From: Gammaproteobacteria bacterium
GTDB lineage: Bacteria; Pseudomonadota; Gammaproteobacteria; Eutrophobiales; Eutrophobiaceae
Length of the DNA: 64,000 nt
Assembly: GCA_965221695.1 (NCBI GenBank)
Contig: OZ244905.1
Span: forward strand, 2,912,001 to 2,976,000
Reading direction: 5' to 3'
In this document: positions 20,784-62,315 of the stretch, piece after piece
How the letters are laid out: every line of letters starts with the position of its first letter
How positions within the stretch are numbered: position 1 is the stretch's first letter
Position numbers and translations under genes: made by a program
Notes under the pieces: generated by a model
What the model was told of the DNA's origin: nothing
What the model saw: only the letters and a program-made list of their open reading frames with translations
The model's database searches: none

Positions 20784-20787
20784 TATA

Positions 20788-20876
20788 AGGGGTCGCCCCT
20801 CGGGCGACACAGAACATGACTGGACTCCCGCTTCCGCGGGAGTGGTACGGTGGTGAAGCTCGCGGGAGTGGTACGC
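20788..20876. repeat. REP-family copy inside the T1SS operon
   Basis: GGGTCGCCCCTCGGGCGACAC + GACTGGACTCCCGCTTCCGCGGGAGTGGTACG, with local duplication of CGCGGGAGTGGTACG. Confidence 0.85.
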
Positions 20877-20885
20877 AAATACAAG

Positions 20886-22334
20886 ATGACAACAGAAGCA
20901 AAACAATCATTTCCAAACATGGTCGCCGGCACACTGGCCGCCTGGCTTCAACGCCTGTCTGGCTCCGCCGCCGCCCTGTTGCGCGGACCAAAAGAGGACG
21001 AAGTCGACCTGTCCCGGGACGCCGCGGACGAGAAGGCGGAACTGAAAAACCTGCTGAACCGGGACGTGGTCATGCGCCGTGGCATCATCGTTGTTGTCAT
21101 CGCGCTGGGTGGCTTCCTCGCCTGGTCTATGTTGGCGCCCCTGACCGAAGGGGTGGTCGCGATGGGCACAGTGGTGGTGGACACGCAGAACAAGACCATC
21201 CAACACCTTGAAGGTGGTATCGTGGAGAAGCTGCATGTGCGCGAGGGCAGCGAGGTCAAGACCGGCGATGTGCTCATCGAACTCAGCGAAACCCAGAACC
21301 GCGCTCAACTTGAACTGCTGGAGAGCCGGTATTACGGCCGCCTGGCAGAAATCAACCGGCTCAACGCGGAACGCCTGTTGCAGGATGGGATCACCTTCTC
21401 CGATGAACTGCTGGCGTTACGCGATGACCCGGTTATCGCCGACATCCTGGCAGTGCAAGAGAACCTGTTCCAGGTGCGGCGTCGCCAGTACTACGGGCAG
21501 ATTGAGGTACTGCGACATCGCATCACTCAGCTTGAGGAGCAGGTGCGTGGCCTGGAGTCGACCCGGGAGGCATTGCTGCGCGAACGTGGTCTCATTGAGA
21601 AGGACCTGGAGAGTCTGGTCGCCCTCAAGGAACAGCAACTGATTGATGAAGGCGTACTCATCGGCCGCCAGCGCGAATACGAACAGGCCATTGGAAAACT
21701 GGGCACCATGGCTGCTGATATCGCCGCGACCCGGGTGAAGATCGGCGAGACGCGCCAGGAGATCCTGCAGATTGAACATGGCTGGGGCACGGAGGTATCC
21801 GACCAAATCACCGCGGCGCAACAGCAGTGGTTCGAGACCCGCGAGCGCATTAATGCAGTGTCGGACGTGTTACAGCGTACCACCATCGTCGCGCCCCAGG
21901 ATGGCAAGGTGATTGGCCTGTCCGTGCATACCCTGGGCGGAGTGATACCGCCGGGTAGCCCGATTATGAACATTGTCCCGAGCGAAGACCGGCTCGTAGT
22001 GGAAGGCCAGGTGCGCCCCATCGATATCGATAATGTCTATCCCGGCCAGACGGCCCGCCTGCGGTTTTCCTCGTTCAGTTGGCGCACCACACCCCAGGTG
22101 GAGGGCAAAGTCGAGCGCGTCTCGGCAGACGTCTTCCGTGACGAGCAGCAGGGCACATCCTACTATATCGCCCGCATCCTGGTGCCTGAAGAGGAAATGG
22201 CCAAGCTGGGCGATGCCACCATCGGCGCCGGTATGCCCGTCGACATCATGTTCACCGGCGGCTACCGCACCGCAATGGAGTACTTGACCGACCCCATCAC
22301 GGACATCTTAGATAAGGCCCTGGTAGAAGAATGA
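20886..22334 (+). CDS. HlyD-family type I secretion periplasmic adaptor
   Basis: TM helix, IQHLEGGIV, long coiled coil, IVAPQDGKV, AGMPVD, EYLTDPI. Confidence 0.93.
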   Translation: MTTEAKQSFPNMVAGTLAAWLQRLSGSAAALLRGPKEDEVDLSRDAADEKAELKNLLNRDVVMRRGIIVVVIALGGFLAWSMLAPLTEGVVAMGTVVVDTQNKTIQHLEGGIVEKLHVREGSEVKTGDVLIELSETQNRAQLELLESRYYGRLAEINRLNAERLLQDGITFSDELLALRDDPVIADILAVQENLFQVRRRQYYGQIEVLRHRITQLEEQVRGLESTREALLRERGLIEKDLESLVALKEQQLIDEGVLIGRQREYEQAIGKLGTMAADIAATRVKIGETRQEILQIEHGWGTEVSDQITAAQQQWFETRERINAVSDVLQRTTIVAPQDGKVIGLSVHTLGGVIPPGSPIMNIVPSEDRLVVEGQVRPIDIDNVYPGQTARLRFSSFSWRTTPQVEGKVERVSADVFRDEQQGTSYYIARILVPEEEMAKLGDATIGAGMPVDIMFTGGYRTAMEYLTDPITDILDKALVEE

Positions 22335-23776
22335 GTATCGGGAATCCAGTAAGACAAGGGGTCACCCTGCGGGCGACGCGGTATTTGACTGGACTCCCGC
22401 TTTCGCGGGAGTGGTGCGGTGGCGCCGCAGGCGCACTTTATTCCCTTATGCTCGCGCTAAACTTCGCACTGCCCACTGCCGCTGCCGCCGAGAACGCAGT
22501 CACCGACAGTGTAGTCACCAACAGCGCAGTCACCAGCAACGCAGCCGTCGACAGCGCCGCTGCTGACAGCGCAGGCGCCTACACCCTCTCGCAGGCATTC
22601 CTCGACACTTTGGCGCGGGACCCTCAAATACAGGCGGCGGAGAGCCGCGTCGCCGAGGCGCGCGAGCGGATGGAGGAAGTGAACGCCAGTCTGCGTCCCT
22701 CGCTTACCCTGTCCGGCAATACCGGTTATGCCTATAACCGCAACCAGGCTCGCATCACATCGATCTACGAAGGCCACTCGTCCCGGGGCAGGGTGCAGTT
22801 GAATCAAAACCTGTACACCTTTGGCCGTATTGAAGGCCGCCGCCAGCGTGTTGATGCCGAGATCGCCGAAGCGGAATTTGCCCTCGAAGAAGTACGCCAG
22901 GATGTACTGGCGGAGGTTGCCCGCGCCTTTTCCGAACAGTTGTTCCGGGAACGCATCTACCAGAGCCGCCAAGACTTTGAGAAGCTGCTGGGTGAGTTGG
23001 AGGATGCGGCGCGCCGCCGCATCGAACTGGGCACCCTGGACCGCACCGAATTATTTGGCGTGCTGCGCCGTCTGCACCAGGCAAAGGCGCAGCGCATCGA
23101 GGCACATTCCCGTTACCGCGTGGCGCGCGCGCAATTGGCCCGCCTGACGGGTCTGGAACACGACAACCTGGCCCCTGCCTCCCTGGCAAGTCTGGAACTG
23201 GCGGCGCCGACCAGTCTCGACTTCGCGTTGCACCAGGCAGAAAAGCAGTCTCCTGCGTTGATGCAAGCGCGTATGCGCCTGGAGGCTGCCGAGGGTGAGC
23301 TCGCATTCCGCAAGGCCGAACTCTGGCCGACCCTGAGCCTGGAAGTAAACGCCAGCACAGGCAATGTCGGGCAGATCGACACCACTGATGTCGTCGGTGG
23401 AGTCAATATCTCTGTGCCGATGTATGAGGGCGGCGCCAAGCGCTCGCAGTTGCGCGGCGCCAGGCTGGCGGTGGAGACTGCGCGCCGGGAACTGTTTGCG
23501 GTACAGGAACGGGTCGATATTGATGTGCGTTCCAACTGGGACCTGCTTCAAGGTCTGGTTATGTCTCTGCTGGAATTCGAGGCAGCCGTCGCCGACATGG
23601 ATGAAGTAGTGGCTTTGACCGGTAGTAAACTCGACGTAGGCCGCGCCACTTTCGTGCAGCACATCGAAGCCCGGCAAGACGCGCTGGATGTTGAATACGA
23701 ACTACTGAACAGCCACCTTCGCCTGGAAGAAACCCGCATCGAATTGCTGCGCGTCCTGGCGGAACTCAGTCCCTGA
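22331..23776 (+). CDS. TolC-family outer membrane protein (alternative start ATG 22448)
   Basis: two OEP repeats (LRPSLTLS, LWPTLSLE, SVPMYEGG); third gene of the T1SS operon. Confidence 0.85.
   Translation: MSIGNPVRQGVTLRATRYLTGLPLSREWCGGAAGALYSLMLALNFALPTAAAAENAVTDSVVTNSAVTSNAAVDSAAADSAGAYTLSQAFLDTLARDPQIQAAESRVAEARERMEEVNASLRPSLTLSGNTGYAYNRNQARITSIYEGHSSRGRVQLNQNLYTFGRIEGRRQRVDAEIAEAEFALEEVRQDVLAEVARAFSEQLFRERIYQSRQDFEKLLGELEDAARRRIELGTLDRTELFGVLRRLHQAKAQRIEAHSRYRVARAQLARLTGLEHDNLAPASLASLELAAPTSLDFALHQAEKQSPALMQARMRLEAAEGELAFRKAELWPTLSLEVNASTGNVGQIDTTDVVGGVNISVPMYEGGAKRSQLRGARLAVETARRELFAVQERVDIDVRSNWDLLQGLVMSLLEFEAAVADMDEVVALTGSKLDVGRATFVQHIEARQDALDVEYELLNSHLRLEETRIELLRVLAELSP
22340..22423. 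repeat. REP-family copy at the hlyD/tolC junction
   Basis: GGGAATCCAGT...GTCACCCTGCGGGCGAC...GACTGGACTCCCGCTTTCGCGGGAGTGG. Confidence 0.88.
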
Positions 23777-32034: not shown

Positions 32035-33021
32035 TCAGCAATATCCATTCTCCTTAAACCAGTCGACCGCGTCCTCTATCGCAACGCGCGCCGGACGGGC
32101 TTCGTAACCCAGCGTTTGTTGCGCCAGGGCGGAGGAAAAATACATGTATTTTTTCGACATTTTAACGCCGTCTACTGTCGCGAACGGTTCCTTCCCGCTT
32201 GCCCGCGCCCACTGCTCCGCCAGCCAGGCGATGGGGTAGACTGCGTTGTGGGGCAGCCGCAGGCGCGGCGGCGCCAGGCCCGCGTAGTCGCAGATGATGC
32301 CGAGGATGGTCTGCAATGACAGGTTTTCCCCGCCCAGGATGTAACGTTTGCCGGCTTCGCCTTTTTCAAACGCCAGCAGGTGTCCGGCTGCGACATCATC
32401 CACATGGGCGATGTTCAGGCCCGTGTCCACGTAAGCCGGGATTTTCCCCCTTAGCGCATCGACGATGATGCGGCCGGTGGGCGTGGGTTTGATATCCCGC
32501 GGCCCGATGGGCGTGGACGGGTTGACGATAACCACGGGCAAACCCTGTTCCTCGACCAGTTCCAGCGCCGCCTGTTCGGCGAGGAACTTCGAGCGCTTGT
32601 AATGGCCGACCATGTGCCTCAAGCTTACCGGCGTGGTCTCGTCGGCAGGACTCCGGTCCCGGTTGATGCCCAGGGTTGCCACGCTGCTGGTGTACACCAT
32701 CCTGCTGACGCCGGCGTCTGCGGCCGCGCGCAACAGGTTCCGGGTCCCGTCCACGTTGGTTTGGTACATGCGTTCCGGGTCGGGTATCCACAGGCGGTAA
32801 TCCGCGGCGACATGGAACAAGTGGTTACAACCGAGCGCCGCTCGTTGCAGCGAGGCTGGGTCAGTCAGGTCGCCTTCGGCCAGTTCGACATCCAGTTGTT
32901 CCAGGTTGCGCCGGTCACTACCGGGCCTGACCAGCGCTCTTACCTGGCGGCCCTGCGCTAGCAGCGCCCGCGCCAGCGCGGATCCGACGAAACCGTTGGC
33001 GCCTGTTACCAGTGTGGTCAT
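32035..33021 (-). CDS. hpnA: hopanoid-associated NAD-dependent epimerase/dehydratase
   Basis: TGANGFVG, FHVAADYRLW, HYKRSK, GPRDIKPTPTG. Confidence 0.92.
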   Translation of the reverse strand: MTTLVTGANGFVGSALARALLAQGRQVRALVRPGSDRRNLEQLDVELAEGDLTDPASLQRAALGCNHLFHVAADYRLWIPDPERMYQTNVDGTRNLLRAAADAGVSRMVYTSSVATLGINRDRSPADETTPVSLRHMVGHYKRSKFLAEQAALELVEEQGLPVVIVNPSTPIGPRDIKPTPTGRIIVDALRGKIPAYVDTGLNIAHVDDVAAGHLLAFEKGEAGKRYILGGENLSLQTILGIICDYAGLAPPRLRLPHNAVYPIAWLAEQWARASGKEPFATVDGVKMSKKYMYFSSALAQQTLGYEARPARVAIEDAVDWFKENGYC

Positions 33022-33049
33022 GGCTTGGTACGGCTTCTGGAAGTGGAAT

Positions 33050-33655
33050 TCAATTTCGTCCCCTCTTGCATTGCTGGTACTCGCGCAGAGTCCACAATGC
33101 GAACACGGGCGCGCCGATGGCGGCGATGATGAGGAACGGCTGCAGCATATCGAACAACGTGACCAGCGGCAGCAGGTAGAAGATATCTTCGATCTCGAAC
33201 AGCCCGATGCCGGGTTGTTCAACCTTGAACCTGCCGGTAGCGCTGCCGATCATCATACGCAGGTGAAAGGTTACGGCCACGGCAACGCCGGCGAGAATTC
33301 CGATGAACAGCGCCCCGGCGCCCAGCGGACCGTGCAGCAGGCCAAAGCCTATGCTCACAAACAGCAAGATATTGATGATGGCATCGCTAATGAGATCGTA
33401 GAAATGGCCGGACTTACTGGTCTTGCCGGTGAGCCGGGCCAGCTCTCCGTCGCTATGGTCGAGAAAGTTTGACAGCGCAAAACACCAGGCGCCGGCGTTA
33501 ATCCGTTGCGGGTCCCCGGTGGCGAGCAGCATACAGGCGACGACACCGGTGATCAAACGCACCGTCGTCAGGTGGTTGGGTGTGACAGCAGTATTGCGTA
33601 ACGGATAAACCAGCCAAGCCGCCAGCCGCGCGTCCAGCGGTTTGTCATTGTGCAT
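33050..33655 (-). CDS. CDP-alcohol phosphatidyltransferase family protein
   Basis: TPNHLT, DHSDGELAR...SGHFYDLISD signature. Confidence 0.9.
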   Translation of the reverse strand: MHNDKPLDARLAAWLVYPLRNTAVTPNHLTTVRLITGVVACMLLATGDPQRINAGAWCFALSNFLDHSDGELARLTGKTSKSGHFYDLISDAIINILLFVSIGFGLLHGPLGAGALFIGILAGVAVAVTFHLRMMIGSATGRFKVEQPGIGLFEIEDIFYLLPLVTLFDMLQPFLIIAAIGAPVFALWTLREYQQCKRGRN

Positions 33656-33739
33656 TCGGGCGCTTCCGACAGGCTTCCATAGGCTATGAATTATATCGCA
33701 TCAGATAGTTAAAACACACGAGGACTCATGTAATTTATA

Positions 33740-36385
33740 TTAATCCCGCGGTTTTCCAACTACGGTCAGCAGCGCCGGCAGCACCAGCAGCATGCAGACC
33801 AGGGTGACGCCGATGCCCAGGGTGAGCAGTATGCCCATACTGGCCGTGCCTGCGTGGGGCGACAGCGCGAGGTTGCCGACCCCGCCCATGGTGGTCAGCG
33901 AGCTGACGACGACTGCACGCGCGGAACTGGTGGCCAGGATATTTCTCCCGTCCGGCAGGTCTGTACGGAACCTGTGGATGATATGGATGCCGCTGTCCAC
34001 GCCGATGCCCAGTAGCAGGGGCAGGGCGATGACGTTGGCGAAGTTCAGCGGCAAGCCGGCCAGCACGCTGATGGCGCCGGTGATCAGCGCCGCAGTGAGC
34101 AGGGGGACCAGCGCCAGAAACACGTCTCTTTTGCGCGCCAGCAGTAGATACAGCATGATCGTGATGGCAATGAACGCGTACAAAAAGGCCTGACGGAACG
34201 CTAAGGATACCGCATCGCTGGCTTCCAGGTTGATGACCGGTGGTCCGGTGACTGCGGGTGATATGGACTGAATTCCGCGCACGAATTCCCGCAGCGCCTG
34301 GTTGTCTTGCATGTCTCGCCGCGGGTAGATTTCGATGCGATGCTTGCCGTCGGCGCTGACCCAAAGACGTTTGAGCGCATCCGGTAGGGTTTCCAGGGAG
34401 ATGAAATCGGCGTCCAGAGATGCATTCAATACCTCCAGCCGCCCGGGGAGCGATGCCAGCAGCATCTGTTCCAGTTGCGCAAGCTGTGCTGCGTCGGGGT
34501 GAGAAATCCCCGGTTTTTGCCCGGTTGAATCTTGTGGTTCCCGAACGCTACCCGTTTGTGCTTGCAGCAACGCCGCCAGGTTGGCTTGCAGGCGCGTATG
34601 GACCGGGTCGTTAACCCCGGCTTGTTGCAGTGTTTCCTGGAATCCGAGCAGCGCGGTCAGGCGCGCCCCGCCGGTTTGCGCTGCGGGGTCCGGCGCCGCA
34701 ACCACCAGGTCGCCCAGCAGCAGGCCCATCTCATCGATGATAAACAGCTTCTCGTCTTGGTCTACGGGGATGAAGTCCGCCACTGTGACCACCTTGTCCA
34801 CCAGTTCAGATTGAGTAAACGCGTCACGGTACCTGTCCGCCTCATCGTCGCCGGCGATCATGATTGCGGTCCAGGGCGTCAGGTCATTGTCCGCGAGCAG
34901 CTCCCGGTATGCAGTCAGCGCGCCGCCGTCTTGGGGGTGCAGGTTCAGCGGATTGTGGTCGAAGCGCAGGCCGCCCAGCGCGGCGGCGGAGACCAGGACC
35001 ACGCAGACCGAGACGCCGAGTATCTTTCCTGCATGCTGTTCCACCAGGTGTGCGCCGCCGAGTGTCGCCCGGTGCGCGCCCGCGTTGTAGGGCAGCAGTG
35101 ACAACAGCGCCGGTATCACCGTGAGTGTGACCACGAAACTGACGAACATGCCGACGCCGGATATCCAGCCGAGTTCGGCGACACCCGTGAAATCTGTGGG
35201 GATGAAGGCAAAAAAGCCGATAGCGGTGCTGACCGCGCACAAGAACAGGGAGTCGCCGATGTTGACCGATGTCTCATCCAGGGCGCGCGCCCGGTCCGTA
35301 CCGTCGAGCAGGTGTTCCCGATAACGCAAGCAGTAGTGGATAGCAAAATCGACCCCCAGGCCGATGTACAACACCGCGAAGGCCACAGAAATCAGGTTCA
35401 GTTCGCCTACCGTGAGAATGGCGAACGCGGCGGTAAAAATCAGGCCGGTTACGAGGCTGATCACACTGACCAGCGCCAGCATGAAGGAACTCAGGCCCGT
35501 GACCATGATGAAAGTGACCAGGCACAGGGCCAGAAAGATGGCCGTTTCCGTACCTTGCATCACGCTCACCATTTCCTCGTGCGCGAGCATGGTGGCCCCG
35601 GTCAGGCGCAGTCCTGCGCCCGGGGACGCGGCGATGCCGAGTTCATCGTAGGCTGCGCGGATCATGTCGACGGCCGGGGTTGCCGGAAAAAATCCGGCGT
35701 AATCCAGTTTTGGCTGTGTCAGGATAAATTCGCGGTACGGAGCCGTGCCCGCGTCGTCTGCGTCTCCGGACATGAGTTGCTGCCAGGACAGGCGATAGGG
35801 GCGGCCGTCTTGCAGCGCTTCCAACGCTGTGTTGATGCGGGTGAAGATGGGTTCGAGTTGTACCTGCTCACCGTCACCGGCGGCCTCCAGCGCTTCGCCC
35901 AGCGCCCCGAACAGGCCCTGGAGAGTGGGGTCCCGGGCCAGTCTCGCAAGAAACGGCTGCACCTCGGCGAGATTGTCGGACAGGTCTTGCAGTTGCGCGG
36001 GTTCCAGGTACAGCAGTCCGGATTCCCGAAATACCGGCAGCGCGTTCGGGTAGTAGACGAACTCGAACAGGTCCCGCTCTGCCTGCAGCCGCTCGTACAG
36101 CAGCATTGCCGCATCGCCGGCCTGGTCCGGCGTAGCGGCTTCCAGGACGATCAGGATGTTGTTGTCGTACTGCGGGAACAGCCGCTCATATTCCTGGTCC
36201 AGTTGCCGCCAGGCAAGCTGTGCGGAAAGCATGTCTTCCGTGTCGGTATTCACTGCAATATTGTCCACGGTGTAGCGCACCGCAAAAAAGGCAAGCGCAA
36301 ACACCGCCAGCAACACTGCCGGCGCGGCCCTGCGTACCAGGCGCACCCACTTGAGCAACAGCATGGAGGAGAATTGCTTCAGCAT
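33740..36385 (-). CDS. hpnN: hopanoid transporter, MMPL/RND family
   Basis: two RND TM blocks (IGLGVDFAIH, LGIGVDSGIH), PLNFANVIALPLLL; hpn context. Confidence 0.9.
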   Translation of the reverse strand: MLKQFSSMLLLKWVRLVRRAAPAVLLAVFALAFFAVRYTVDNIAVNTDTEDMLSAQLAWRQLDQEYERLFPQYDNNILIVLEAATPDQAGDAAMLLYERLQAERDLFEFVYYPNALPVFRESGLLYLEPAQLQDLSDNLAEVQPFLARLARDPTLQGLFGALGEALEAAGDGEQVQLEPIFTRINTALEALQDGRPYRLSWQQLMSGDADDAGTAPYREFILTQPKLDYAGFFPATPAVDMIRAAYDELGIAASPGAGLRLTGATMLAHEEMVSVMQGTETAIFLALCLVTFIMVTGLSSFMLALVSVISLVTGLIFTAAFAILTVGELNLISVAFAVLYIGLGVDFAIHYCLRYREHLLDGTDRARALDETSVNIGDSLFLCAVSTAIGFFAFIPTDFTGVAELGWISGVGMFVSFVVTLTVIPALLSLLPYNAGAHRATLGGAHLVEQHAGKILGVSVCVVLVSAAALGGLRFDHNPLNLHPQDGGALTAYRELLADNDLTPWTAIMIAGDDEADRYRDAFTQSELVDKVVTVADFIPVDQDEKLFIIDEMGLLLGDLVVAAPDPAAQTGGARLTALLGFQETLQQAGVNDPVHTRLQANLAALLQAQTGSVREPQDSTGQKPGISHPDAAQLAQLEQMLLASLPGRLEVLNASLDADFISLETLPDALKRLWVSADGKHRIEIYPRRDMQDNQALREFVRGIQSISPAVTGPPVINLEASDAVSLAFRQAFLYAFIAITIMLYLLLARKRDVFLALVPLLTAALITGAISVLAGLPLNFANVIALPLLLGIGVDSGIHIIHRFRTDLPDGRNILATSSARAVVVSSLTTMGGVGNLALSPHAGTASMGILLTLGIGVTLVCMLLVLPALLTVVGKPRD

Positions 36386-36389
36386 ATTA

Positions 36390-36652
36390 GTACTCTTTCA
36401 ACTTAATTTTGACATGTTCAGCGGGTCGGGAAGCGGTTGAGCGCAAGGCGCGGTGCGCAGGGAATGGCGCGCCCTTCGCAAGCGGCGCAACGCAGCGGGC
36501 GACCGCTTCCCGGCCCGCCCATAGGGAGCCACACAGCGACGCCAATACGGCGTTGCAGCCCTTGGCAAGGGCGCGCCATTCCCGGCGGGCTGCGCCTTGT
36601 CTTGTCGTCGCTGTGTGGCTCTGAATATGTCAAAATTAAGTTGAAAGAGTAC
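36390..36652. mobile_element. MITE with ~32-bp TIRs and TA duplication (IS630/Tc1-type ends)
   Basis: TA-GTACTCTTTCAACTTAATTTTGACATGTTCAG ... CTGAATATGTCAAAATTAAGTTGAAAGAGTAC-TA (1 mismatch); internal inverted repeats. Confidence 0.88.
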
Positions 36653-36661
36653 TAGTATTAA

Positions 36662-36824
36662 TGGGTCACCCTTCGGGCGACACGGTATTCGACTGGACTC
36701 CTGCTTCCCAGCCTGCCCCTGTATGGCGTTGAGCAGGGGCAGGAGTGGTTATGGTGGCGGCGCTCACGCAAGCGCCCCGCATCCCATTCCCGCGCAAGCG
36801 GGAATCCAGTGAAACAACAGGTTA
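36662..36824. repeat. REP/BIME-like copy with loop insertion
   Basis: central hairpin, inverted REP carrying a ~30-bp insert, then CCATTCCCGCGCAAGCGGGAATCCAGTG. Confidence 0.88.
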
Positions 36825-36891
36825 CCTTTTTATAAACCAGTTAGATGTTTTTGACAAGTCCAGTCTTGTCCTTGTTACAGCGGCGTAGCCA

Positions 36892-37674
36892 TCACCCCTG
36901 CGCCAACAAGACTCTGCCGGTTCGCTTCAGGGTGATGTTGGCGCAGTGCGCGGCGAGGGCCAGGCGTACGATTGTCGGGATTTGTGCGGGAGACCTGGCG
37001 AGGTCGAGCATAAGTCCTGCGGCATCGACTTCGCCAAAGGCGTCAACCCGTCGCAGAGCGGTGTCCGGTAGCGCCATGCCCGCGTCATCGATGATGGCGC
37101 GCAATACCAAGGTCGGCAGGCCGTAGCGGCCCGCTATTTCAAGCGCTCCGGCGCTTTCCATATCGACTGCCAACGCCCCGGTGCGTTCGAACAGCTTTTG
37201 CTTCTGCACGGCCGATGCAACCGGTTCCGCCACACAGGCCAGCAACCCTTTATGAATCCTGGTTTGGGACATGCGGAAAACTTTCAGGACACCCATATAA
37301 CTTTCAGGACAATTTCGCGCAAAATAACCAGGTCGCCCTTGAGAATTTCGGGACAACCATTCTATAGCCAGCTCAGACAAGTCTGCGTCCGCGGTATATT
37401 TCTTTCCCTCTTCGCAGACCTGTTGTGCAACCACCAGGTCGCCCGGCCTGAGTGAAGGCGCCAATGCTCCTGCGGTACCGACCACAGCCAGGCAGTCAGC
37501 GCCTGCATCGACCAGGTTCTGTGCGGCCTGCCGCGCCCGCCCCCGGCCCATACCGGACAGGATCAGCAGGGTTTTTTCATTGAGTTCCACAGGTTGCTGC
37601 GCGGGCAGTTTCCCGTGCTTAAAGCGCCGCGCCTCGGAACGAAGCGCACAGATTATGCCAAGTCTGTGGTTCAA
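36892..37674 (-). CDS. hpnG: hopanoid-associated phosphorylase/nucleosidase
   Basis: LGIICALRSEA, SGMG, GTAGALAP.LRPGD, AVDMES, LRAIID; TTG start overlaps the squalene synthase stop. Confidence 0.85.
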   Translation of the reverse strand: MNHRLGIICALRSEARRFKHGKLPAQQPVELNEKTLLILSGMGRGRARQAAQNLVDAGADCLAVVGTAGALAPSLRPGDLVVAQQVCEEGKKYTADADLSELAIEWLSRNSQGRPGYFARNCPESYMGVLKVFRMSQTRIHKGLLACVAEPVASAVQKQKLFERTGALAVDMESAGALEIAGRYGLPTLVLRAIIDDAGMALPDTALRRVDAFGEVDAAGLMLDLARSPAQIPTIVRLALAAHCANITLKRTGRVLLAQG

Positions 37675-38711
37675 GCCGCGGGCAGGCCGGCTGCCAGCCT
37701 GTTGAACAGCCATCTCAGCAGGAAGTCGTGACGGGTAAGCAGATTCGTGGAGATGATAGTGGTCTTGACGGCGCGGCGCGAGATCTTGACTTGGTCGCCG
37801 GAGGTAAACCCGCGCCGGCTGTTGATGTTGCGTAAGGTCAGCACCGCCATGCCCAGCGCCCACAGGCAGAAGCGCCTGATCCCGGTCTCATTGCTTGGCA
37901 GCAGCAGCGTGTATGTCAGTGCATTGCTCAAATGCATACGGGCAACGCCGATCAACTGACCCAAAGCCTGCTGAAATTCCTCGCCGTTGCGCAGGGGCGC
38001 CCCATCGTCCAGGGAAACGCCGTGGCTTTCCAGCACCGAGCGCGGCAACCAGCACATGTTGCGTTGCTGGTCGTCCCAGATGTCCTTGAGGATATTGGTC
38101 ATCTGCAGGCCCTGGCCGAACGATACCGCCAGTTGCATCAGCTCGTCGTGGTGTTGGTCGATGACGCTGGAATAGTCGCAGAACAGCTCGGTGAGCATCT
38201 CTCCCACGACACCCGCGACGTAATAACAGTAGCTGTCCATGTCTTGCTGGTCTTTCAGGCCGTTTGCGACGTTTGCCTCCTGGTATCGGGACATGCCATC
38301 GGCCATGATCCTGATACAGCGTTGCAATGCCGCCTGCTGTCGTTCGTTGAAACTGAGAGTGATGCGGATGACTGCGGGCGTGTTCCGAACCAGGTCGTGT
38401 TCCTCGTCGGTAGCGCTTGCTGACAACCGGGGCTGCAGGTCAAGCGCGAACTGCTGCGCGTCTTCTGTGCCATTGACCACCCGGATAAACCGGTCGGAGA
38501 ACTGCCGTTTGTCTACATAGGGCAATTGCTTGTCGTCTTCGATGGTATCGGCGATGCGGCACAGCAGGTAGGCATTGCCCACCACCCGCTCCAGGGAATC
38601 AGGGAGTTGCGGAATGGTCAGCGCAAAGGTGCGTGAAACACCTTGAAGAATTTCATGTTGGTAGGCAAGGTCTGCCGGCGCCGGTCTGTTCATTGGAGAG
38701 AAATATGCCAA
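37671..38711 (-). CDS. squalene synthase (farnesyl-diphosphate farnesyltransferase, single-enzyme type)
   Basis: VSRTFAL flap, DTIEDD, YCYYVAGVVG, GLQMTNILKD, VKISRR; start may be 38693. Confidence 0.85.
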   Translation of the reverse strand: MAYFSPMNRPAPADLAYQHEILQGVSRTFALTIPQLPDSLERVVGNAYLLCRIADTIEDDKQLPYVDKRQFSDRFIRVVNGTEDAQQFALDLQPRLSASATDEEHDLVRNTPAVIRITLSFNERQQAALQRCIRIMADGMSRYQEANVANGLKDQQDMDSYCYYVAGVVGEMLTELFCDYSSVIDQHHDELMQLAVSFGQGLQMTNILKDIWDDQQRNMCWLPRSVLESHGVSLDDGAPLRNGEEFQQALGQLIGVARMHLSNALTYTLLLPSNETGIRRFCLWALGMAVLTLRNINSRRGFTSGDQVKISRRAVKTTIISTNLLTRHDFLLRWLFNRLAAGLPAA

Positions 38712-38851
38712 CTATCGATGACAATGGCAAGGGTTTCATGTATTACTTGTTTCATGTATTGCTCAGCAGTTCCCGCTCACTTCTGGAATCACAGGCGTTC
38801 CGCCCTTAGGCAGGCGAGACGCCCGTGCCCCCAGCGCTACGGCGCCAGCCA

Positions 38852-39850
38852 TTACCGATCCGATGATGTGGTTAATCCTTTTCGCCGTTTCAGATAGCGC
38901 CGGCTTTCCACTTGTTGCAGGGTAAGCAGCCCCATCGGATCGAATATCAGGTCGCGGATGCGCAATGACAGTGACAAGGCCAGGCAAAATCCGGGGTCGA
39001 AGCCAACCAGCGCGCCGATCAGGATGAACGCGCCTTCCTGTACCCCGTAAGCGTTGGGAATGATGAACGCGAGATCGCTCAAAACGGTTGTCAGGCTACG
39101 CAGTAACAAGGCTTCGAACATGCTGACAGGTTGTCCCAGCAGCAGGCAGGCCAACCACAGCTCGACGGTGTGCAGCGCCAGCGATGCCAGCCGATACAGC
39201 GTCGCGAGCAGGATTTTGCGCTGCTTGCCGTACAATTCCCGCACCAGCCGGTCCGCTTCCTCGGCAGAAAACCTGACGCCTTGCCAGGCTTCGTGTTTTA
39301 CCAGCTTCTCCGCCAATTTCGCCAGCGCCCCGAGCATGCCGTAACGCTGGATAACGATGAGGCCGCCGGCGCTGAATAACAGGAACAGAATGCCGGCTAC
39401 CGCGTACGGAACCAAGCGGTTGTCACCGGGCAAGAGGGTCAGAAGCAACACGCCGATCAGCGCCCAGCAGGCAAGCGCCAGCGCTTGAACGGTCTTGTCT
39501 GCCATCACCGATGCCGCGGCATGGGCCGTGCCCGTGCCCCAGATAGACAGCAGCCTTGCCTTGACCACCTCTCCGCCAATGGATGCCACGGGTAACAGGT
39601 TGTTGACCGCGCGCCCCATCCACAATGCCAGCAGCGCATGGCTGAAGCGCGGCGTCTCGCTGGAACGGAATAACTGGCGCCAGCCCTCGGTTGCCGGCAA
39701 CAACGTAGGCAACCAGACCAACGGCAGCAACAGCAGGTACCAACCCGAATTCAGCAGTAGCCGGAACACATCCATGAAGCCCTGCCAGAGCAACAGGCCA
39801 ATGAGCAGCGCCAGCCCGAGTACAAGGCCAAGTTGTGTCAGTAACCGCAT
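38852..39850 (-). CDS. lysylphosphatidylglycerol-synthase/flippase-like membrane protein (HpnL-like)
   Basis: AVNNLLPVASIGGEVVKARLL, IPNAYGVQEG; hpn context. Confidence 0.8.
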   Translation of the reverse strand: MRLLTQLGLVLGLALLIGLLLWQGFMDVFRLLLNSGWYLLLLPLVWLPTLLPATEGWRQLFRSSETPRFSHALLALWMGRAVNNLLPVASIGGEVVKARLLSIWGTGTAHAAASVMADKTVQALALACWALIGVLLLTLLPGDNRLVPYAVAGILFLLFSAGGLIVIQRYGMLGALAKLAEKLVKHEAWQGVRFSAEEADRLVRELYGKQRKILLATLYRLASLALHTVELWLACLLLGQPVSMFEALLLRSLTTVLSDLAFIIPNAYGVQEGAFILIGALVGFDPGFCLALSLSLRIRDLIFDPMGLLTLQQVESRRYLKRRKGLTTSSDR

Positions 39851-40041
39851 GGGGAAATAAGCCGTCTGCAAATATCCGTATCAAGGACATATAAATTCAA
39901 AAATCCACCCTCTTGTCGTCCATGAGCGTCGGTCTTGATGACATGAAATCATCATAAGCAACCGGTAGCTCTGCAAAAGAAGTCCAGTATACCTTATATC
40001 CATCTGTGACAAGAGGTCAATCAAGTTTTCCATGAAGCAAA

Positions 40042-40392
40042 ATGGTATTCACGCACATCGCAATTATTTATAATAAAATGACCGTCCACATATTTTTGCG
40101 CGATTTGGAAGGCGCTGTGAAGGATCAGGATGATTTTTCAGATGGCCGTATACCGCGTAGCGCAGCTTGGGAGATGGATAAAACACAGAAGACCTTTGCC
40201 GAGCAGTTTTATCTTGAGGAGGCCGGTTTTTTCCGGCGCCTCGGTCGCGATATCCGTCTGCTCGTTTATCTCGTCATGACTATCATAATGTGGGTCAAGG
40301 CCGGGAAGTTCCGCTCTGAATTCCGTCGCTGCCGGGCCGCAGGCGAACCGTATTATGTCGACAGATTCAGCTCCCCGGAGACCGAAAAGTGA
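40042..40392 (+). CDS. small protein with one hydrophobic segment, coupled to the RdhA-like gene (start may be 40117 or 40174)
   Basis: LLVYLVMTIIMWV segment; GTGA overlap with the next gene. Confidence 0.6.
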   Translation: MVFTHIAIIYNKMTVHIFLRDLEGAVKDQDDFSDGRIPRSAAWEMDKTQKTFAEQFYLEEAGFFRRLGRDIRLLVYLVMTIIMWVKAGKFRSEFRRCRAAGEPYYVDRFSSPETEK

Positions 40393-41375
40393 AACTGTAT
40401 GCGACCCCCTCGGCGGAAAATCTGCCGGGATATAAAGCGCAACCTGCTTCCGGAAATAGCATAAACGGTCGGGGTTTGAAGGAAAAAGTGCGCCCCAGGC
40501 GGGTGTTCCACGCGCCGTGGAAGAGGGAACTGCCCTGGACCGGCATGAATGACTTTTTCCTGATGAACAACACCTGGTCGATAATGATACAGGCTCTTAA
40601 GAACCGGTGGTTGATGCGGCGTTGCGCCGGGCCGGTCGCAAAACGCCGGATTGAAGCTAATGATCCTGATGAAATGGCCCGGCAGATAAAGCGGAAAGCC
40701 AAGGAGTTGGGCGCAGGGATCGTAGGAATTACCGAAATGGAACCCAATGATCTGTATGAGGACATGGAATTGAAGTACCGGTATGCCATTTGTATCGGCA
40801 TCCCCATGCGCCGGGAGGAAATGCTGCACGTGCCCCACAAACGCGCCGGGCTGGAGGTCCAGCGCGTCTATGGAGAGGTGGCCAGGGTGTCCGTTGAACT
40901 AGCGGAATACATACGCGCCATGGGCTGGCCAGCCTATGCCTACGGCGACCCGCGCAGCACGGAGGCGTTGCAGATACCTATGGCGATTCGCGCCGGGCTG
41001 GGCCAGCTTGGGAAGCACGGTTCGATGATCTCGAAAGAATACGGTTCCAACTTCCGTCTGTCTGCTGTCGGCACGGACCTCCCGCTCAGGCTGGACAGTC
41101 CTATCGATATCGGGGTGGATGACCTGTGCCTGGGCTGCCGGCGCTGTACGATCGATTGTCCGCCCGACGCCATTCTTGATGAGAAGCAGTGGGTGCGCGG
41201 CGAATACCGCTGGTATGTGGATTTCGATAAATGCGTGCCTTATTTCACGACGACGTATGGTTGCGCAATCTGCATAGAAGTCTGCCCCTGGTCGGAGCCA
41301 GGTCGTGGCCCGAAGCTGTCGCAGTTGCTGCTGGCGAAGCGAAATAAAACAGCGAGCGCAACCACAGTGGGGTGA
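40389..41375 (+). CDS. reductive dehalogenase-like cobalamin/2x4Fe-4S protein (short, no Tat signal)
   Basis: IKRKAKELGAGIVGI, LAEYIRAMGWPA, AGLGQLGKHG, TDLPL..D.PIDIG, CLGCRRCTIDCP, KC-x9-CAICIEVCPW. Confidence 0.78.
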   Translation: MKLYATPSAENLPGYKAQPASGNSINGRGLKEKVRPRRVFHAPWKRELPWTGMNDFFLMNNTWSIMIQALKNRWLMRRCAGPVAKRRIEANDPDEMARQIKRKAKELGAGIVGITEMEPNDLYEDMELKYRYAICIGIPMRREEMLHVPHKRAGLEVQRVYGEVARVSVELAEYIRAMGWPAYAYGDPRSTEALQIPMAIRAGLGQLGKHGSMISKEYGSNFRLSAVGTDLPLRLDSPIDIGVDDLCLGCRRCTIDCPPDAILDEKQWVRGEYRWYVDFDKCVPYFTTTYGCAICIEVCPWSEPGRGPKLSQLLLAKRNKTASATTVG

Positions 41376-41576
41376 CTCAGGGAAGCTCTGAATTAATCTT
41401 TCGGGGGTTGCTTGGAAGCGCGTCTTACCGGGCTTGATCCCATATATTATTTTCCGTGATATCAGGTTATTGGTTTTGTTGATTGGCATACCGCTCCCCG
41501 GTTAACTAAAGTTATCTATGGATATATCCGTCCCAAGTGTGGCGGGTACTGCGCGAAATCAGCCTGGGGGTCATCA

Positions 41577-43742
41577 ATGAAGCTTCAGTCACATGTTTTC
41601 AGTGTCATAATTGCGGTTCTGACCTTGTTCATCTCAATGGATTCTTCTGCGGCGGTACTTGAGGAGATTATTGTTACCGCACAGAAACGGGAGCAGAACC
41701 TGCAAAACGTCGGTATCTCGATCACCGCCCTCAGCGGCGATCAGATGCGCAAATTCGAGTTCAACAACAGCACGGAGGTAGTACAGCAGATTCCGGGCGT
41801 GACGAATTTTTCCACTCAGGGCAGGGGCGCTGCGGCGTTCACCTACATAAGAGGCATCGGGCAGAATGACTTCGGTGATGCGCACGAGTCGCCCGTGGTC
41901 GGATATAACGATGAGTTTTACCTGTTACCGCAGACCGCAATCGATTTCGGGTTGTTTGACCTGGACAGGGTGGAAGTCTTGCGCGGCCCGCAAGGGACCT
42001 TGTTCGGGCGCAATACCACGGGCGGATTGATGCATTATGTGACCAGTAAACCAACCGACGAATTCAACGGTTTTCTTGACGCCACTTATGCTTCCTATGA
42101 CGAAGTCGTCGTGGAAGGCGCGATCGGCGGCCCGCTCGGCGAAAACGTGTCGGCGCGGGTTGCCGGACTGTTTCACGAGGCCGATGGATATATCAAGAAC
42201 AGAGGGCCGTTTCCGGACGGTTCCGATGCCGGCGCCTGGGCGCTACGCGGCCAACTTGCGTTTGAACCGACTGATACGTTCAAGCTTCTGGCCAAGGTTC
42301 AATACGGGGAGAGAGACGTGATACCCCTCTACACGGATCATGAAATTGTCTCATTCGACCCGGCTACCGGACTTGCCTCCCTGAATCCAGAGGGGGTTGA
42401 TATTCTTGGGTATTCCGAAAGCCAGCGCGGTGTCGAGGAGCCAAGAGAAGTCTGGACTGACAACCCGCAAGACCTGGAATCCGAGTCGTTTCATTCTCTG
42501 TTACGCGCCGAATGGGACCTCGGGGCGGTGACGTTGACCTCACTCACAGGCTACCTGTACCTGACCCGTGACAACGTGGAGGACTGTGACGGCTCCATCA
42601 ATGATCTCTGTACGGCTGCGTTTCCCTATGACAACGAACATATTACCCAGGAGCTGAGGATTGCGGGGGAAACCGGGCAGTTCAGGTGGACCACCGGGGT
42701 TTATTATTTATACCAGGACGCAGAGGCTCATCCATCTGCTTCGTTGATCGGAGGCGTAGTGACGTTTGATGCGCCATGGGAACTGGAAACGGAGTCCATC
42801 TCGGTATTCGGGCAAGCCGAGATCAGTCTGCATGAAGACTGGACGCTCATCGGTGGCGTGCGTTACACGCATGATGAAAAGAACTTTGAAACGGAAAACC
42901 GCACCAGCGGCGCATTCGCCAACGCGGCAGCCAATTTTACTCAAGAAGCCGTGGGCGACCTGACCAAACGCACAGAAGACCTGGTCTCCGCAAAGATTGA
43001 GTTGGACTGGCGCCCGACGGACGACCTGCTGGTTTACGGGTCTGTGTCCCGCGGCACCAAGGCAGGGGGCTTCAATAACGGGTTTTACAGTATTCCGACT
43101 CCCGATCAGGTGCCGTATGCGGATGAGACCCTGTACGCTTTTGAAATTGGCATCAAGAATACGTTCTATGATGGCCGGGCGCGTTTCAATGCCGCGGCAT
43201 TTTATTACGACTACTCGGATTTTCACACCTATAACTGGAACGGTCTCGGCGGGGCGATTTCGAATTCAGACGCATCATCCTTCGGCGGCGAGATTGAGTT
43301 CAGCGTGACTCCCGTCGAGCGCCTGAATATTTCCGTTGGTATGGCATTGCTCGATTCGGAAATCGAGGATGTGTCAAATGGCGCGATCATACGCGACGTT
43401 GAGATGTCTTTCGCGCCAGCTTTCGATATCACCGGCCTGGTGAGCTATAACTGGCCGGTAGGAAATGGTGAACTGGAGGCTCAATGGAATTTCAATTACA
43501 TGGATAACAGGTACAACAACAACTATAACGAGCCTGCATCTGACCTTGGAGAGAGTTTCGTTACCAATGCGAGGCTTTCCTACCTGACGGCAAACCAGGA
43601 TTGGGAAATCAGTTTCTTTGTGAAAAACATCACGGATGAGACCAACCTGATCAAGATTTTCGTATTCCCGTTCAATTACCGGCAGGCCGTGTATGATCCG
43701 CCGCGCTGGTTCGGAGGGTCGATACGCAGAAACTGGAATTAG
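41577..43742 (+). CDS. TonB-dependent receptor
   Basis: signal peptide, LEEIIVTAQKREQ TonB box, RVEVLRGPQGTLFGRN, C-terminal PRWFG..IRRNW. Confidence 0.95.
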   Translation: MKLQSHVFSVIIAVLTLFISMDSSAAVLEEIIVTAQKREQNLQNVGISITALSGDQMRKFEFNNSTEVVQQIPGVTNFSTQGRGAAAFTYIRGIGQNDFGDAHESPVVGYNDEFYLLPQTAIDFGLFDLDRVEVLRGPQGTLFGRNTTGGLMHYVTSKPTDEFNGFLDATYASYDEVVVEGAIGGPLGENVSARVAGLFHEADGYIKNRGPFPDGSDAGAWALRGQLAFEPTDTFKLLAKVQYGERDVIPLYTDHEIVSFDPATGLASLNPEGVDILGYSESQRGVEEPREVWTDNPQDLESESFHSLLRAEWDLGAVTLTSLTGYLYLTRDNVEDCDGSINDLCTAAFPYDNEHITQELRIAGETGQFRWTTGVYYLYQDAEAHPSASLIGGVVTFDAPWELETESISVFGQAEISLHEDWTLIGGVRYTHDEKNFETENRTSGAFANAAANFTQEAVGDLTKRTEDLVSAKIELDWRPTDDLLVYGSVSRGTKAGGFNNGFYSIPTPDQVPYADETLYAFEIGIKNTFYDGRARFNAAAFYYDYSDFHTYNWNGLGGAISNSDASSFGGEIEFSVTPVERLNISVGMALLDSEIEDVSNGAIIRDVEMSFAPAFDITGLVSYNWPVGNGELEAQWNFNYMDNRYNNNYNEPASDLGESFVTNARLSYLTANQDWEISFFVKNITDETNLIKIFVFPFNYRQAVYDPPRWFGGSIRRNWN

Positions 43743-59816: not shown

Positions 59817-60941
59817 TTATAACCTCCCCGTGTATCTGCGTTGTTTCCAGCCGGCGCCGGCGCCGTTCCAGTGACGCCAGGCGGAACTCCAGGTCATCAG
59901 CAGGTACAGCGCGCCGGCAAACGGAAACGCCGCGCACCAGGCCGGGTTTATGCGGTAATAGCGCAGTGTGGGCAGGTAACTGGCGGTCATCAGCAGTATG
60001 CCGGCCAGGGCCGTCAGGCGGACGGCAAGGTCTGCGCTGAACAGGCCGGCCAGCGGTAATACGAAGCCGGCTGCGAGCAGCGCGGTGCACAATGCCAGCA
60101 GGATGAAGGAGTGGTGTAACTGAGTGTACGCGGTCCTGGCGACCATGTTCCAGATGCTGGCCAGCCCGTCATAGCAGCGCCGGCTCTGCGCCGAGTGGGA
60201 CAAACCAATCCAGGTGGCCAGGCCGGCATCCCTGAAGCGGCGAGCCAGCGCGCAGTCATCGATCAGCTTGTCCTTGATAGCTTCAAAACCGCCTGCCCGG
60301 ACCAGTGAATCCGTGCGTAGCAGGATGCAGCCGCCGGCCGCGGCCGCGACCACCTTCGAGCCATTGTTGGAGAGGTGAAACGGGTACAGCAACTTGAAAA
60401 AATAAACGAATGCCGGCATCAGCAGTTTTTCCCAGCGAGATTCCATGCGCAGGAACGCGAGCAACGACACCAGGTGCAAGTCATGTTCTTGCATCCTGGT
60501 CTTGAGCGCGCTGATAGTCCCCGGTTGCAGGCGGATATCGGCATCGAGCAGCAGCATGATCTTTGTGTTTACCCGTGGTAGGCCCTGGTGCAGCGCCCAC
60601 AATTTGCCGCTCCAGCCGGGTTCCAGGGCGCGGCCATTGACGATGGTCAGGTTGTCCAGGCGCATCCGCTTTGCTTCGGCCACGGTGGCATCTGTTGATT
60701 GGTCGTTGATCAGCACGATGCTGTGCCCTTGTCCTTGCGCGGCTAAGGAGTTGAGGGTTTCGGCGATGACCTCGGCCTCGTTGCGTGCCGGAATCAGTAC
60801 GGTGACATCGGACAGGTCCGTGTTCCGGTCGTCGTTACCTGCTTCCAGTGTTTCCCGGTTGCGCCAGGGCTGCCAAGGGAGCGCCAGGATACCGGTCCAG
60901 AGCATGACTCCCGGTAATACCAGCCAGAATGTGTCCGTCAA
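59817..60941 (-). CDS. hpnB: hopanoid-associated glycosyltransferase (GT2)
   Basis: IPARNE, GWSGKLWA, DADI, AAAAGGC, LIDDCALA, WNMVARTAYTQL. Confidence 0.9.
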   Translation of the reverse strand: MTDTFWLVLPGVMLWTGILALPWQPWRNRETLEAGNDDRNTDLSDVTVLIPARNEAEVIAETLNSLAAQGQGHSIVLINDQSTDATVAEAKRMRLDNLTIVNGRALEPGWSGKLWALHQGLPRVNTKIMLLLDADIRLQPGTISALKTRMQEHDLHLVSLLAFLRMESRWEKLLMPAFVYFFKLLYPFHLSNNGSKVVAAAAGGCILLRTDSLVRAGGFEAIKDKLIDDCALARRFRDAGLATWIGLSHSAQSRRCYDGLASIWNMVARTAYTQLHHSFILLALCTALLAAGFVLPLAGLFSADLAVRLTALAGILLMTASYLPTLRYYRINPAWCAAFPFAGALYLLMTWSSAWRHWNGAGAGWKQRRYTGRL

Positions 60942-62083: not shown

Positions 62084-62315
62084 CAGCAGCCTTCACGTCA
62101 GTTAATTACTAAAAACAGAGTGTTTCAGCAGCCTGAAACGCGTTAACCGCAAAGGATATAGGATAAACCGGTAAATGTACAGTCACATCACACAATTCAC
62201 AAAAAAAGAGCGCCCAACTAGGACACGTATATTATTTTGTTGGATGTTCTGTCTTTTTATTGGGCGTCCTGTTATCGTGATATACTGGTTTTTTGACTGA
62301 TAATTGGAAAGGCGT

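Follow-up and report, generated by a model that had tools for sequence, protein, structure and literature searches.

Reductive dehalogenases (RdhA) are known mainly from anaerobic organohalide respirers, together with a few large 'catabolic' enzymes. Here we analyse a pair of overlapping genes that encode a compact RdhA-like enzyme of 328 amino acids (aa) and a small upstream partner protein. The pair lies in a 64,000-nucleotide stretch of contig OZ244905.1 (positions 2,912,001–2,976,000; assembly GCA_965221695.1) from a gammaproteobacterium of the Eutrophobiaceae, referred to below as the window, with coordinates counted from its first letter. The pair is a widespread new two-subunit variant of the RdhA-type enzyme, and is misnamed where it is named at all.

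The respiratory RdhA/RdhB class is marked by a twin-arginine translocation (Tat) signal and by an RdhB of about three transmembrane helices (TMHs) seated on the RdhA C-terminal helices. In the PceA2B2 complex (PDB 8Q4H), PceB contacts PceA at its C-terminal helices, next to the distal cluster, where it forms a menaquinone site (PMC10624902), and Y337 and R396 of DhPceA are given as the two conserved essential residues (Cimmino et al. 2023, PMC10624902). For NpRdhA (PDB 4RAS, 6ZXU), Y426 and K488 are described as the proton-donor dyad, while S422 and R552 bind the phenolic hydroxyl of the substrate (Halliwell et al. 2020, PMC7565698). A vestigial N-terminal duplicate of the cobalamin-binding domain is presented as the defining feature of catabolic RdhAs, and BhbA-type self-sufficient RdhAs carry a C-terminal NAD(P)H reductase (PMC10463259). 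Hybrid RdhAs of 444–487 aa contain three RdhB-like TMHs and an EXE motif (Atashgahi 2019, PMC6797604). More recently, Han et al. 2025 (PMC12219181) distinguished four RdhA-like groups in cold-seep metagenomes, among them 'simplified cytosolic' forms with a mean length of 395 aa and a 'novel clade' whose 302–484-aa members have one N-terminal helix, neighbouring genes that encode TMHs, or both; an example is the 321-aa gene with an upstream one-TMH gene in their Table S4. The adjacent proteins were read there as RdhB or transmembrane anchors, in anaerobic sediments.

Genes for compact RdhA-like proteins beside small helical neighbours are thus already on record, interpreted as respiratory enzymes anchored in the membrane. 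Hybrid RdhAs and the groups of Han et al. share with the present family a non-canonical build, the lack of a Tat signal and, in some members, a length of 300–400 aa, one N-terminal helix or helices supplied by neighbouring genes; for the 'novel clade' and the 'simplified cytosolic' forms the comparison is one of lengths and TMH columns only. Our literature search turned up no account of a conserved family of partners some 70 aa long, of its fusions or of its N-terminal docking; the enzymes may overlap with the 'novel clade' of Han et al. 2025.

The closest described relative of the compact enzyme in both sequence and structure is NpRdhA, with which it shares two [4Fe-4S] motifs, a dyad of Tyr with Lys or Arg, the absence of a Tat signal and, probably, a cytoplasmic location. 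It differs from NpRdhA in being half the size, in lacking the vestigial domain and in having a separate 72-aa subunit. With PceA (PDB 4UQU) it shares the catalytic fold and the Tyr/Arg dyad, and both systems place a small helical partner gene beside the catalytic gene, but the compact enzyme has neither a Tat signal nor C-terminal membrane helices and would be cytoplasmic. Its partner, unlike the three-helix PceB, has one borderline helix, is encoded upstream and is predicted to dock at the N-terminus, so that the hallmarks of the respiratory class are absent. The pair also falls outside the transmembrane (hybrid) class, because the enzyme has no hydrophobic segment and its fused relatives have only one helix. 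QueG (PDB 5D08, 5D6S) belongs to the same superfamily, with a cobalamin fold, two [4Fe-4S] sites, the Tyr position and a GLGxxGKH motif in common, whereas the compact enzyme has neither its catalytic Asp nor its tRNA-binding C-terminal domain.

With some reserve, we favour reading the pair as a two-subunit, cytoplasmic member of the RdhA branch in which a minimal catalytic core is joined by a detached 72-aa N-terminal module, and which is likely to carry out reductive dehalogenation or a close reduction.

A putative catalytic subunit of the RdhA/QueG superfamily

The NCBIfam reductive dehalogenase model (RDH, TIGR02486) matches the 328-aa protein with 121.9 bits over residues 129–302 only, and the QueG model (TIGR00276) matches it with 59.5 bits; the curated cutoffs are 160.35 and 200 bits, respectively. 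A profile of 26 family members searched against PDB sequences retrieved NpRdhA (E 2.6e-50), PceA (9.2e-40) and DhPceA (2.4e-32) far ahead of QueG (1.4e-14). The AlphaFold2 model built on the same alignment (pLDDT 87.9, pTM 0.89) has the RdhA fold, with a nitroreductase-like cobalamin-binding core followed by a ferredoxin module of the 2x[4Fe-4S] type. Superposition with VIA-align placed model residues 32–320 on NpRdhA chain residues 280–591 (Z 29.3, root-mean-square deviation 2.6, 285 residues), followed by 8Q4H (Z 27.8), PceA (Z 27), QueG (Z 15.7 over 195 residues) and MMACHC (Z 7.5). Foldseek gave the same picture (PceA 1e-18; NpRdhA TMq 0.72–0.75; QueG 4.4e-8, TMq 0.42–0.45). On this basis, we conclude that the enzyme belongs to the RdhA/QueG superfamily and is much nearer to the reductive dehalogenases than to QueG. 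A first-pass annotation made from the letters alone had proposed a 328-aa protein with an RdhA-type core and both Fe-S motifs, a compact RdhA subtype and not a QueG. Its coordinates, motifs and fold all hold, and in model scores, PDB profile and structure comparisons the enzyme groups with the RdhAs and not with QueG.

The same annotation rightly saw neither a Tat signal nor a fused reductase domain. The sole RR within the first 60 residues (37–38) was considered as a Tat signal and rejected, since it is non-conserved and is not followed by a hydrophobic h-region, and neither Pfam nor NCBIfam finds a reductase domain in the 328 residues. No transmembrane segment is present (maximum 19-residue hydropathy 1.06), nor is the vestigial second cobalamin-like domain; of NpRdhA, just the catalytic half (residues 280–591) aligns with the enzyme. 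Lacking a Tat signal, a hydrophobic segment, a vestigial domain and a reductase domain, the enzyme therefore stands outside the four subfamilies of Fisher et al. 2023.

Conservation was assessed in an alignment of the query with those 212 of 270 fetched proteins that reach 290 aa, comprising close homologues and representatives. All eight cluster cysteines are kept in all or nearly all of its 213 rows. The Tyr of QRVY and the Arg of SNFRL, picked out by eye in the first reading as the likely catalytic pair, fall in the profile alignment where the NpRdhA dyad lies. All 120 close homologues have Y161, as do 90 of the 93 representatives (the other three being gaps); for R223 the counts are 120/120 and 91/93 (one Lys, one gap). 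The two NpRdhA residues that contact the substrate hydroxyl are replaced in the same alignment, S422 by V157 and R552 by the invariant F286, and the pocket would therefore be more hydrophobic than that of NpRdhA.

The family is large. A word-indexed search returned 1,709 proteins at E ≤ 0.001, about 320–335 aa long; among the 120 matches listed, lengths run from 280 to 349 aa, mostly with more than 93% query coverage and with 57–88% identity. Source names among these are mostly absent, and otherwise read generic Fe-S protein, QueG, PreA or PorD. An exhaustive search of 50%-identity representatives gave 3,806 matches at 0.001, 1,305 at 1e-10 and 206 at 1e-30. Longer homologues (575–2000 aa) were not returned by the word-indexed search at E ≤ 1e-20, which is weak evidence. 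In species-representative genomes, at least 586 loci were confirmed among 598 candidate stretches. We kept 80 related loci for analysis, all from metagenome-assembled genomes (MAGs), whose bins can be contaminated. Their titles name Gamma-, Alpha- and Betaproteobacteria, Acidobacteriota, Actinomycetota, Chloroflexota, Bacteroidota, Gemmatimonadales, Planctomycetota, Cyanobacteriota and one 'Gracilibacteria' bin.

The 3.54-Mb genome that holds the window encodes six compact paralogues (106.5–127.0 bits on the RDH model, all under its cutoff), two NpRdhA-type proteins of 733 and 748 aa that pass it (191.2 and 209.4 bits) and a separate true QueG (496.9 bits), a set of cobalamin-fold reductases that is unusually large for a genome of 3.5 Mb. 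Of the five compact paralogues outside the window (P2 to P6), two have their own partner gene and two stand in tandem. These five, the two NpRdhA-type proteins and the true QueG are found on G000:C1 at 3413032–3414188 (−), 2534280–2535507 (−), 1762599–1764702 (−), 1637325–1638416 (+), 870114–872315 (−), 783630–785876 (−) and 2021787–2022896 (+).

A FastTree phylogeny of 117 rows was rooted on the genome's QueG. It includes the query, eight proteins of its own genome (the two NpRdhA-type proteins being represented by their C-terminal halves alone), 15 of the 120 close homologues, and the 93 of 150 representatives that reach 290 aa; its supports are local Shimodaira–Hasegawa-like values only. 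The partner-associated enzymes form one clade (support 94). Within it, a 20-row subclade (support 99) holds the query, P2 and P3, and its 7-row sister (support 92) consists of six database proteins in which the partner is fused to the N-terminus, together with P0146 (329 aa). P4 and P6 belong to another compact clade, and P5 to a third, with the NpRdhA-type paralogues.

A conserved small protein upstream of the enzyme

The longest small open reading frame (ORF) upstream of the enzyme runs from 40042 to 40392 on the forward strand, beginning with ATG and encoding 116 aa, and this was the length first assigned to the product. However, 14 homologues of 72–95 aa align only from M45, residues 1–44 are covered by none of them, and the corresponding extensions in close relatives are unrelated or absent. 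Since conservation is confined to the last 72 residues, the real start is most likely the ATG at 40174 and the product most likely a 72-aa protein. Both ORFs lie at the coordinates first stated, and the GTGA overlap with the enzyme gene is as first described. Homologues of the enzyme share an MKL N-terminus and are conserved from their first residues, which shows that its GTG start is right. The small protein matches no Pfam or NCBIfam family and has no usable match in the ESM Atlas.

To follow the partner across the 80 loci, a hidden Markov model (HMM) seeded on 15 sequences was iterated over their upstream regions. It matched 47 loci at the first pass and 69/80 at convergence, with E-values from 8e-10 to 5e-26. 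When run on the complete six-frame translation of the same loci (439,879 bases; 7,885 segments, minimum length 30 aa), it again gave 69 matches, every one directly 5' of the enzyme gene and none elsewhere. Over the six frames of the whole 3.54-Mb genome it hit exactly three places, upstream of the query, of P2 and of P3. A second, weak copy of the small protein was found by tblastn directly upstream of the nearest paralogue, and overlapping small ORFs precede P2 and P3 and not P4, P5 or P6. The position-specific signal in loci and genome means that the pairing of enzyme and partner is not due to chance. The spacing is tight: a 4-nt overlap is present in 35/69 loci and a 1-nt overlap in 6/69, overlap of any kind in 45/69 (three of them fused or open cases), and 23/69 pairs lie 0–20 nt apart, leaving one further away.

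Eleven of the 80 loci gave no HMM match. Two of these (L037 and L078) are contig ends with no upstream DNA, three (L056, L059 and L082) have a look-alike small ORF under the HMM threshold, and four (L084, L085, L087 and L088) are in-frame N-terminal fusions of the partner, recognised by eye. These fusions share a layout of helix, basic RR.R.G..IWL(E/D) tail and Pro-rich linker, followed by the enzyme. Fusion also occurs among the matched loci (L058 and L069) and in the six database proteins of the sister subclade (P0138, P0139, P0147, P0155, P0149 and P0188). The small protein is therefore a real conserved partner that precedes the enzyme clade or is fused to it. This holds for the 69 matches and the fusions, with L019 and L068 as the loci where a partner is lacking.

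P0149, found in the search of 50%-identity representatives, joins in one chain of 764 aa a partner-like N-terminus, the enzyme core and a C-terminal FNR/2Fe-2S reductase (PRK10684-type, 1.7e-21, residues 501–762); it is a natural 'self-sufficient' form of the compact family, with a reductase like that of the BhbA type. Other long 'core' ORFs were considered as C-terminal fusions and rejected: those of L020, L033, L039, L050 and L078 are overlaps with, or extensions from, neighbouring genes, and those of L026 and L049 are other-frame or upstream-extended reading frames. In the closest relative (L009:2281–2559, 88% identity) the usual stop of the small ORF is missing and the frame extends to 93 aa, into the enzyme gene; a frameshift or a misassembly of that MAG may be the cause.

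The predicted complex and competing readings

Complex prediction for the enzyme with the 72-aa partner scored 0.85, 0.85 and 0.82, as opposed to 0.01 for the best of three controls. Of 157 solved complexes 116 reach the mark applied to such scores, as do 2 of 215 mismatched pairs, these counts being only approximate for our own unpaired alignments. The partner has a pLDDT of 79–80 across the runs, which share at least 89% of contacts. The interface predicted on the enzyme comprises residues 10–17, 43–46 and 51–83, including the helices at 51–60 and 63–76 of the AlphaFold2 model. Partner helix 25–54 is predicted to lie along enzyme residues 51–83, the YYVD tail (57–66) along residues 10–17, and partner residues 5–17 at residues 79–83. 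The partner helix is amphipathic, not hydrophobic throughout, and has conserved arginines within it. The predicted docking is N-terminal, unlike that of PceB at the C-terminal helices, and the partner would therefore not be an RdhB equivalent. Of the two roles first offered for it, atypical anchor or split-off N-terminal domain, the second is the one that stands: the partner is best read as a detached N-terminal module, as supported by the N-terminal fusions, which form the sister clade, and by the predicted docking on N-terminal helices.

In the mechanism that we propose, the 328-aa subunit would comprise a nitroreductase-like cobalamin-binding fold and then a bacterial-ferredoxin module with two [4Fe-4S] sites, whose clusters would relay electrons to the corrinoid from an external donor. 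Reduction of the substrate would take place at the cobalt, and Y161, under the tuning influence of R223, would supply the proton as in PceA and NpRdhA. Translational coupling would ensure that the 72-aa protein is made together with the enzyme as a stoichiometric subunit, its central amphipathic helix packing on residues 51–83 and its YYVD tail lying along 10–17. The lack of an export signal, together with the fused NAD(P)H-type reductase of P0149, argues for a cytoplasmic enzyme and makes an NAD(P)H-linked donor possible. Most likely the pair reductively dehalogenates a hydrophobic organohalogen of natural origin, or catalyses a closely related reduction.

A number of points weigh against this picture of a cytoplasmic two-subunit dehalogenase. 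The enzyme scores under the curated RDH cutoff (121.9 < 160.35), and its Pfam matches are to Fer4 families only (Fer4_7 over residues 247–301). The exchange of S422/R552 for V157/F286 indicates that the substrate is not a halophenol of the NpRdhA type and need not be halogenated. Neighbouring genes are heterogeneous across 67 loci, with no halogen-related gene, reductase or ferredoxin among them, and Rfam gives no match at all in the window, hence no cobalamin riboswitch. Two of the 78 evaluable loci (L019 and L068) have no partner. The complex and its interface are a prediction from our own unpaired alignments, and the face of the partner helix that it leaves free of contacts is hydrophobic in this protein (I27, L30, V31, V34, M35, I38, V41), such that peripheral membrane binding or a dimer of heterodimers is possible.

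Several of these observations bear on what the enzyme reduces. A cobalamin-dependent reduction other than dehalogenation, acting for example on an epoxide, an N-oxide or another leaving group of a natural product, is a less likely alternative. All six compact paralogues fall under the RDH cutoff (106.5–127.0) while the NpRdhA-type proteins of the same genome pass it (191.2, 209.4); QueG demonstrates that the superfamily accommodates other chemistry, and the GLGxxGKH motif of the compact enzyme resembles that of QueG. There is no halogen-related neighbour, genomes carry several paralogues, and the carriers include lineages titled Acidobacteria, Actinomycetota, Cyanobacteriota and Gammaproteobacteria, which we take to be mostly aerobic. 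However, the dyad by which RdhAs protonate the dehalogenated carbon is kept in almost every sequence aligned, the enzyme is much nearer to the RdhAs than to QueG in sequence and fold, and we know of no alternative chemistry for the RdhA branch.

A second alternative, which partly overlaps with the reading as a two-subunit cytoplasmic enzyme, makes the small protein a single-pass, RdhB-like membrane anchor that tethers the enzyme at the cytoplasmic face and perhaps draws electrons from the quinone pool. The one hydrophobic stretch originally noted in the small protein is present but borderline, its 19-residue Kyte–Doolittle maximum of 1.54 standing just below the classical transmembrane threshold of a mean of 1.6. 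That threshold is reached in only 10/69 split partners (median 1.02), most lineages conserving an Arg inside the helix, and by 7/12 of the fused forms, which are more hydrophobic. A basic stretch rich in R/K follows the hydrophobic helix, as the positive-inside rule would have it, the partner of P3 has a clear 21-residue hydrophobic segment, and the hydrophobic contact-free face predicted for the present protein could serve such a role; single N-terminal helices of the 'novel clade' are, moreover, taken as anchors by Han et al. 2025 (PMC12219181). Set against this, the model buries one face of the helix on the N-terminal helices of the enzyme, whereas PceB binds the C-terminal helices of PceA, where the quinone site is formed (PMC10624902), and P0149, having its own NAD(P)H-type reductase, shows that at least this relative has no need of quinol. 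We therefore regard membrane anchoring as unlikely, and an atypical anchor as doubtful for the general role of the partner.

It is highly improbable that the enzyme is a paralogue of QueG with queuosine precursors or tRNA as its substrate. Some sources do name homologues 'epoxyqueuosine reductase', the QueG model gives its weak match of 59.5 bits, and a queuine tRNA-ribosyltransferase (TGT) gene lies just upstream in one locus, L031. That score is nonetheless far under the cutoff of 200, the structural match is half that to the RdhAs, TGT occurs in 1/67 loci, and the genome has its true QueG at 496.9 bits. As was first noted, the DYH motif of QueG is missing: the compact enzyme reads RVYG where the genome's own QueG has RDYH, and so lacks the His and the Asp, the latter being taken as catalytic from the title of PDB 5T8Y. 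In that alignment QueG also has Phe at the position of R223, and its long C-terminal, tRNA-binding extension has no counterpart in the compact enzyme.

We give almost no credence to the small ORF being a leader peptide or a chance ORF: it has neither a Pfam or NCBIfam family nor a usable atlas match, and the Shine–Dalgarno spacing before the ATG at 40174 is poor, but its amino-acid sequence is conserved across phyla, its HMM is position-specific with E from 8e-10 to 5e-26, natural in-frame fusions exist and the predicted complex passes its controls.

Recognition of the pair as a two-subunit RdhA-type enzyme would correct annotations that now read generic Fe-S protein, QueG, PreA or PorD, and raises the question of what the carrier bacteria reduce with cobalamin. 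Work on B12 biochemistry and biocatalysis would also gain a small scaffold that is probably soluble and may tolerate oxygen, while the predicted docking of the partner would represent a build of RdhA complex different from the RdhA–RdhB model. A broader proposal, which we offer as speculation, is that such pairs make up an undefined heterodimeric class of oxygen-tolerant, cytoplasmic cobalamin/Fe-S reductases, carried by lineages that are in many cases aerobic and whose titles cover at least nine phyla. Its obligate subunit of about 70 aa, separate or fused, might complete the substrate-facing N-terminal region and in some lineages act as a peripheral membrane tether, and its substrates might be natural metabolites, halogenated or not, rather than pollutants. 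If this is true, then with up to six paralogues per genome a sizeable B12-dependent reductive metabolism lies hidden in oxic soils and seas.

Coordinates and genomic setting

Features of the gene pair in the window, with strand and the basis or reading of each.
Feature	Position	Strand	Basis or remark
In-frame upstream extension of the small ORF	40042..40173	+	Non-conserved; probably untranslated leader
Small-partner gene, 72 aa	40174..40392	+	Most likely true extent; TGA stop 40390–40392; homologues align only from M45
GGAG	40377–40380	+	8 nt 5' of the enzyme GTG
Start/stop overlap GTGA (GTG over TGA)	40389..40392	+	Seen in sequence; translational coupling
Compact RdhA-like enzyme gene, 328 aa	40389..41375	+	GTG start; predicted cobalamin-binding core and two [4Fe-4S] sites
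Codons of enzyme residues 10–83, predicted partner-holding strand and helices	40416..40637	+	Complex model
Y161 codon (QRVY)	40869..40871	+	Aligns to NpRdhA Y426, proton donor (profile alignment)
R223 codon (SNFRL)	41055..41057	+	Aligns to NpRdhA K488; equivalent to PceA active-site Arg
First Fe-S motif CxxCxxCxxxCP, C247/C250/C253/C257-P258	41127..41162	+	Invariant in family alignment and in all 213 rows of the conservation alignment
Second Fe-S motif C282...C292xxC295xxxC299P (P300)	41232..41288	+	Invariant in family alignment
Terminator-like hairpin with T-rich tail	41377..41400	+	Directly 3' of the enzyme stop; weak evidence

Scans of the region for terminators and promoters gave counts that are not above those in shuffled sequence. 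This applies both to the hairpin, which is suggestive by position only, and to a promoter-like site 5' of the TonB-dependent receptor gene that follows the pair (41577–43742). A search of public sequencing runs returned no RNA data set. Besides this receptor, the neighbours of the pair are hydantoinase B/A, an SDR, an acyl-CoA ligase and a LysR regulator. The block is flanked by hopanoid genes about 20 kb apart, with HpnA, MMPL (HpnN-like), HpnG, squalene synthase and HpnL upstream (32038–39871) and HpnB, HpnH and Dxs downstream (59820–63998); the stretch between the two sets also holds ArgS and malate synthase G.

Neighbours were compared through 122 ORFs of 67 loci, the simple gene caller having dropped 13 of the 80. 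The receptor and hydantoinase genes recur only in the closest relatives (L009–L012), and other recurrences are scattered (SNF symporter in five loci, MFS in five, Hydantoinase_B in three, UbiD in two, GST in two, TGT in one). No conserved electron-transfer or donor gene appears across the 67 loci called. In L027, L061, L066, L070 and L072 the pair has a convergent gene downstream for a transporter of the sodium:neurotransmitter symporter family, and in L054 one for a Trp/Tyr permease; these could hint at amino-acid-like substrates but are too sparse to lean on. In L031, an alphaproteobacterial MAG, the TGT gene (L031:1121–2242) is directly upstream of the pair.

The initial suggestion that an Rnf complex might supply low-potential electrons was rejected, RnfB (2–499, +, cut by the window start) and RnfC (2287–3810, −) being about 36 kb from the pair and no electron-transfer neighbour being conserved; the single hint of a donor, the NAD(P)H-type reductase fused to the enzyme in P0149, leads in another direction. 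The two Rnf genes are themselves non-adjacent and on opposite strands, with two family-less ORFs (791–1450 and 1843–2187) between them. The single cobalamin riboswitch of the genome (G000:C1:2702046–2702266, 86.7 bits) is far from all RdhA-like genes.

Elsewhere in the window, the region 12131–23773 encodes a protein of 1203 aa that carries RTX-type calcium-binding repeats and has weak serralysin-like matches; after it come the genes of a type I secretion set (PrtD-type ABC protein, HlyD-type adaptor and TolC-type channel). Between 10098 and 11691, a VapC-type PIN toxin ORF (10499–10927) starts where a 134-aa ORF ends, and an MqsA-family antitoxin-like ORF lies at 11239–11691.

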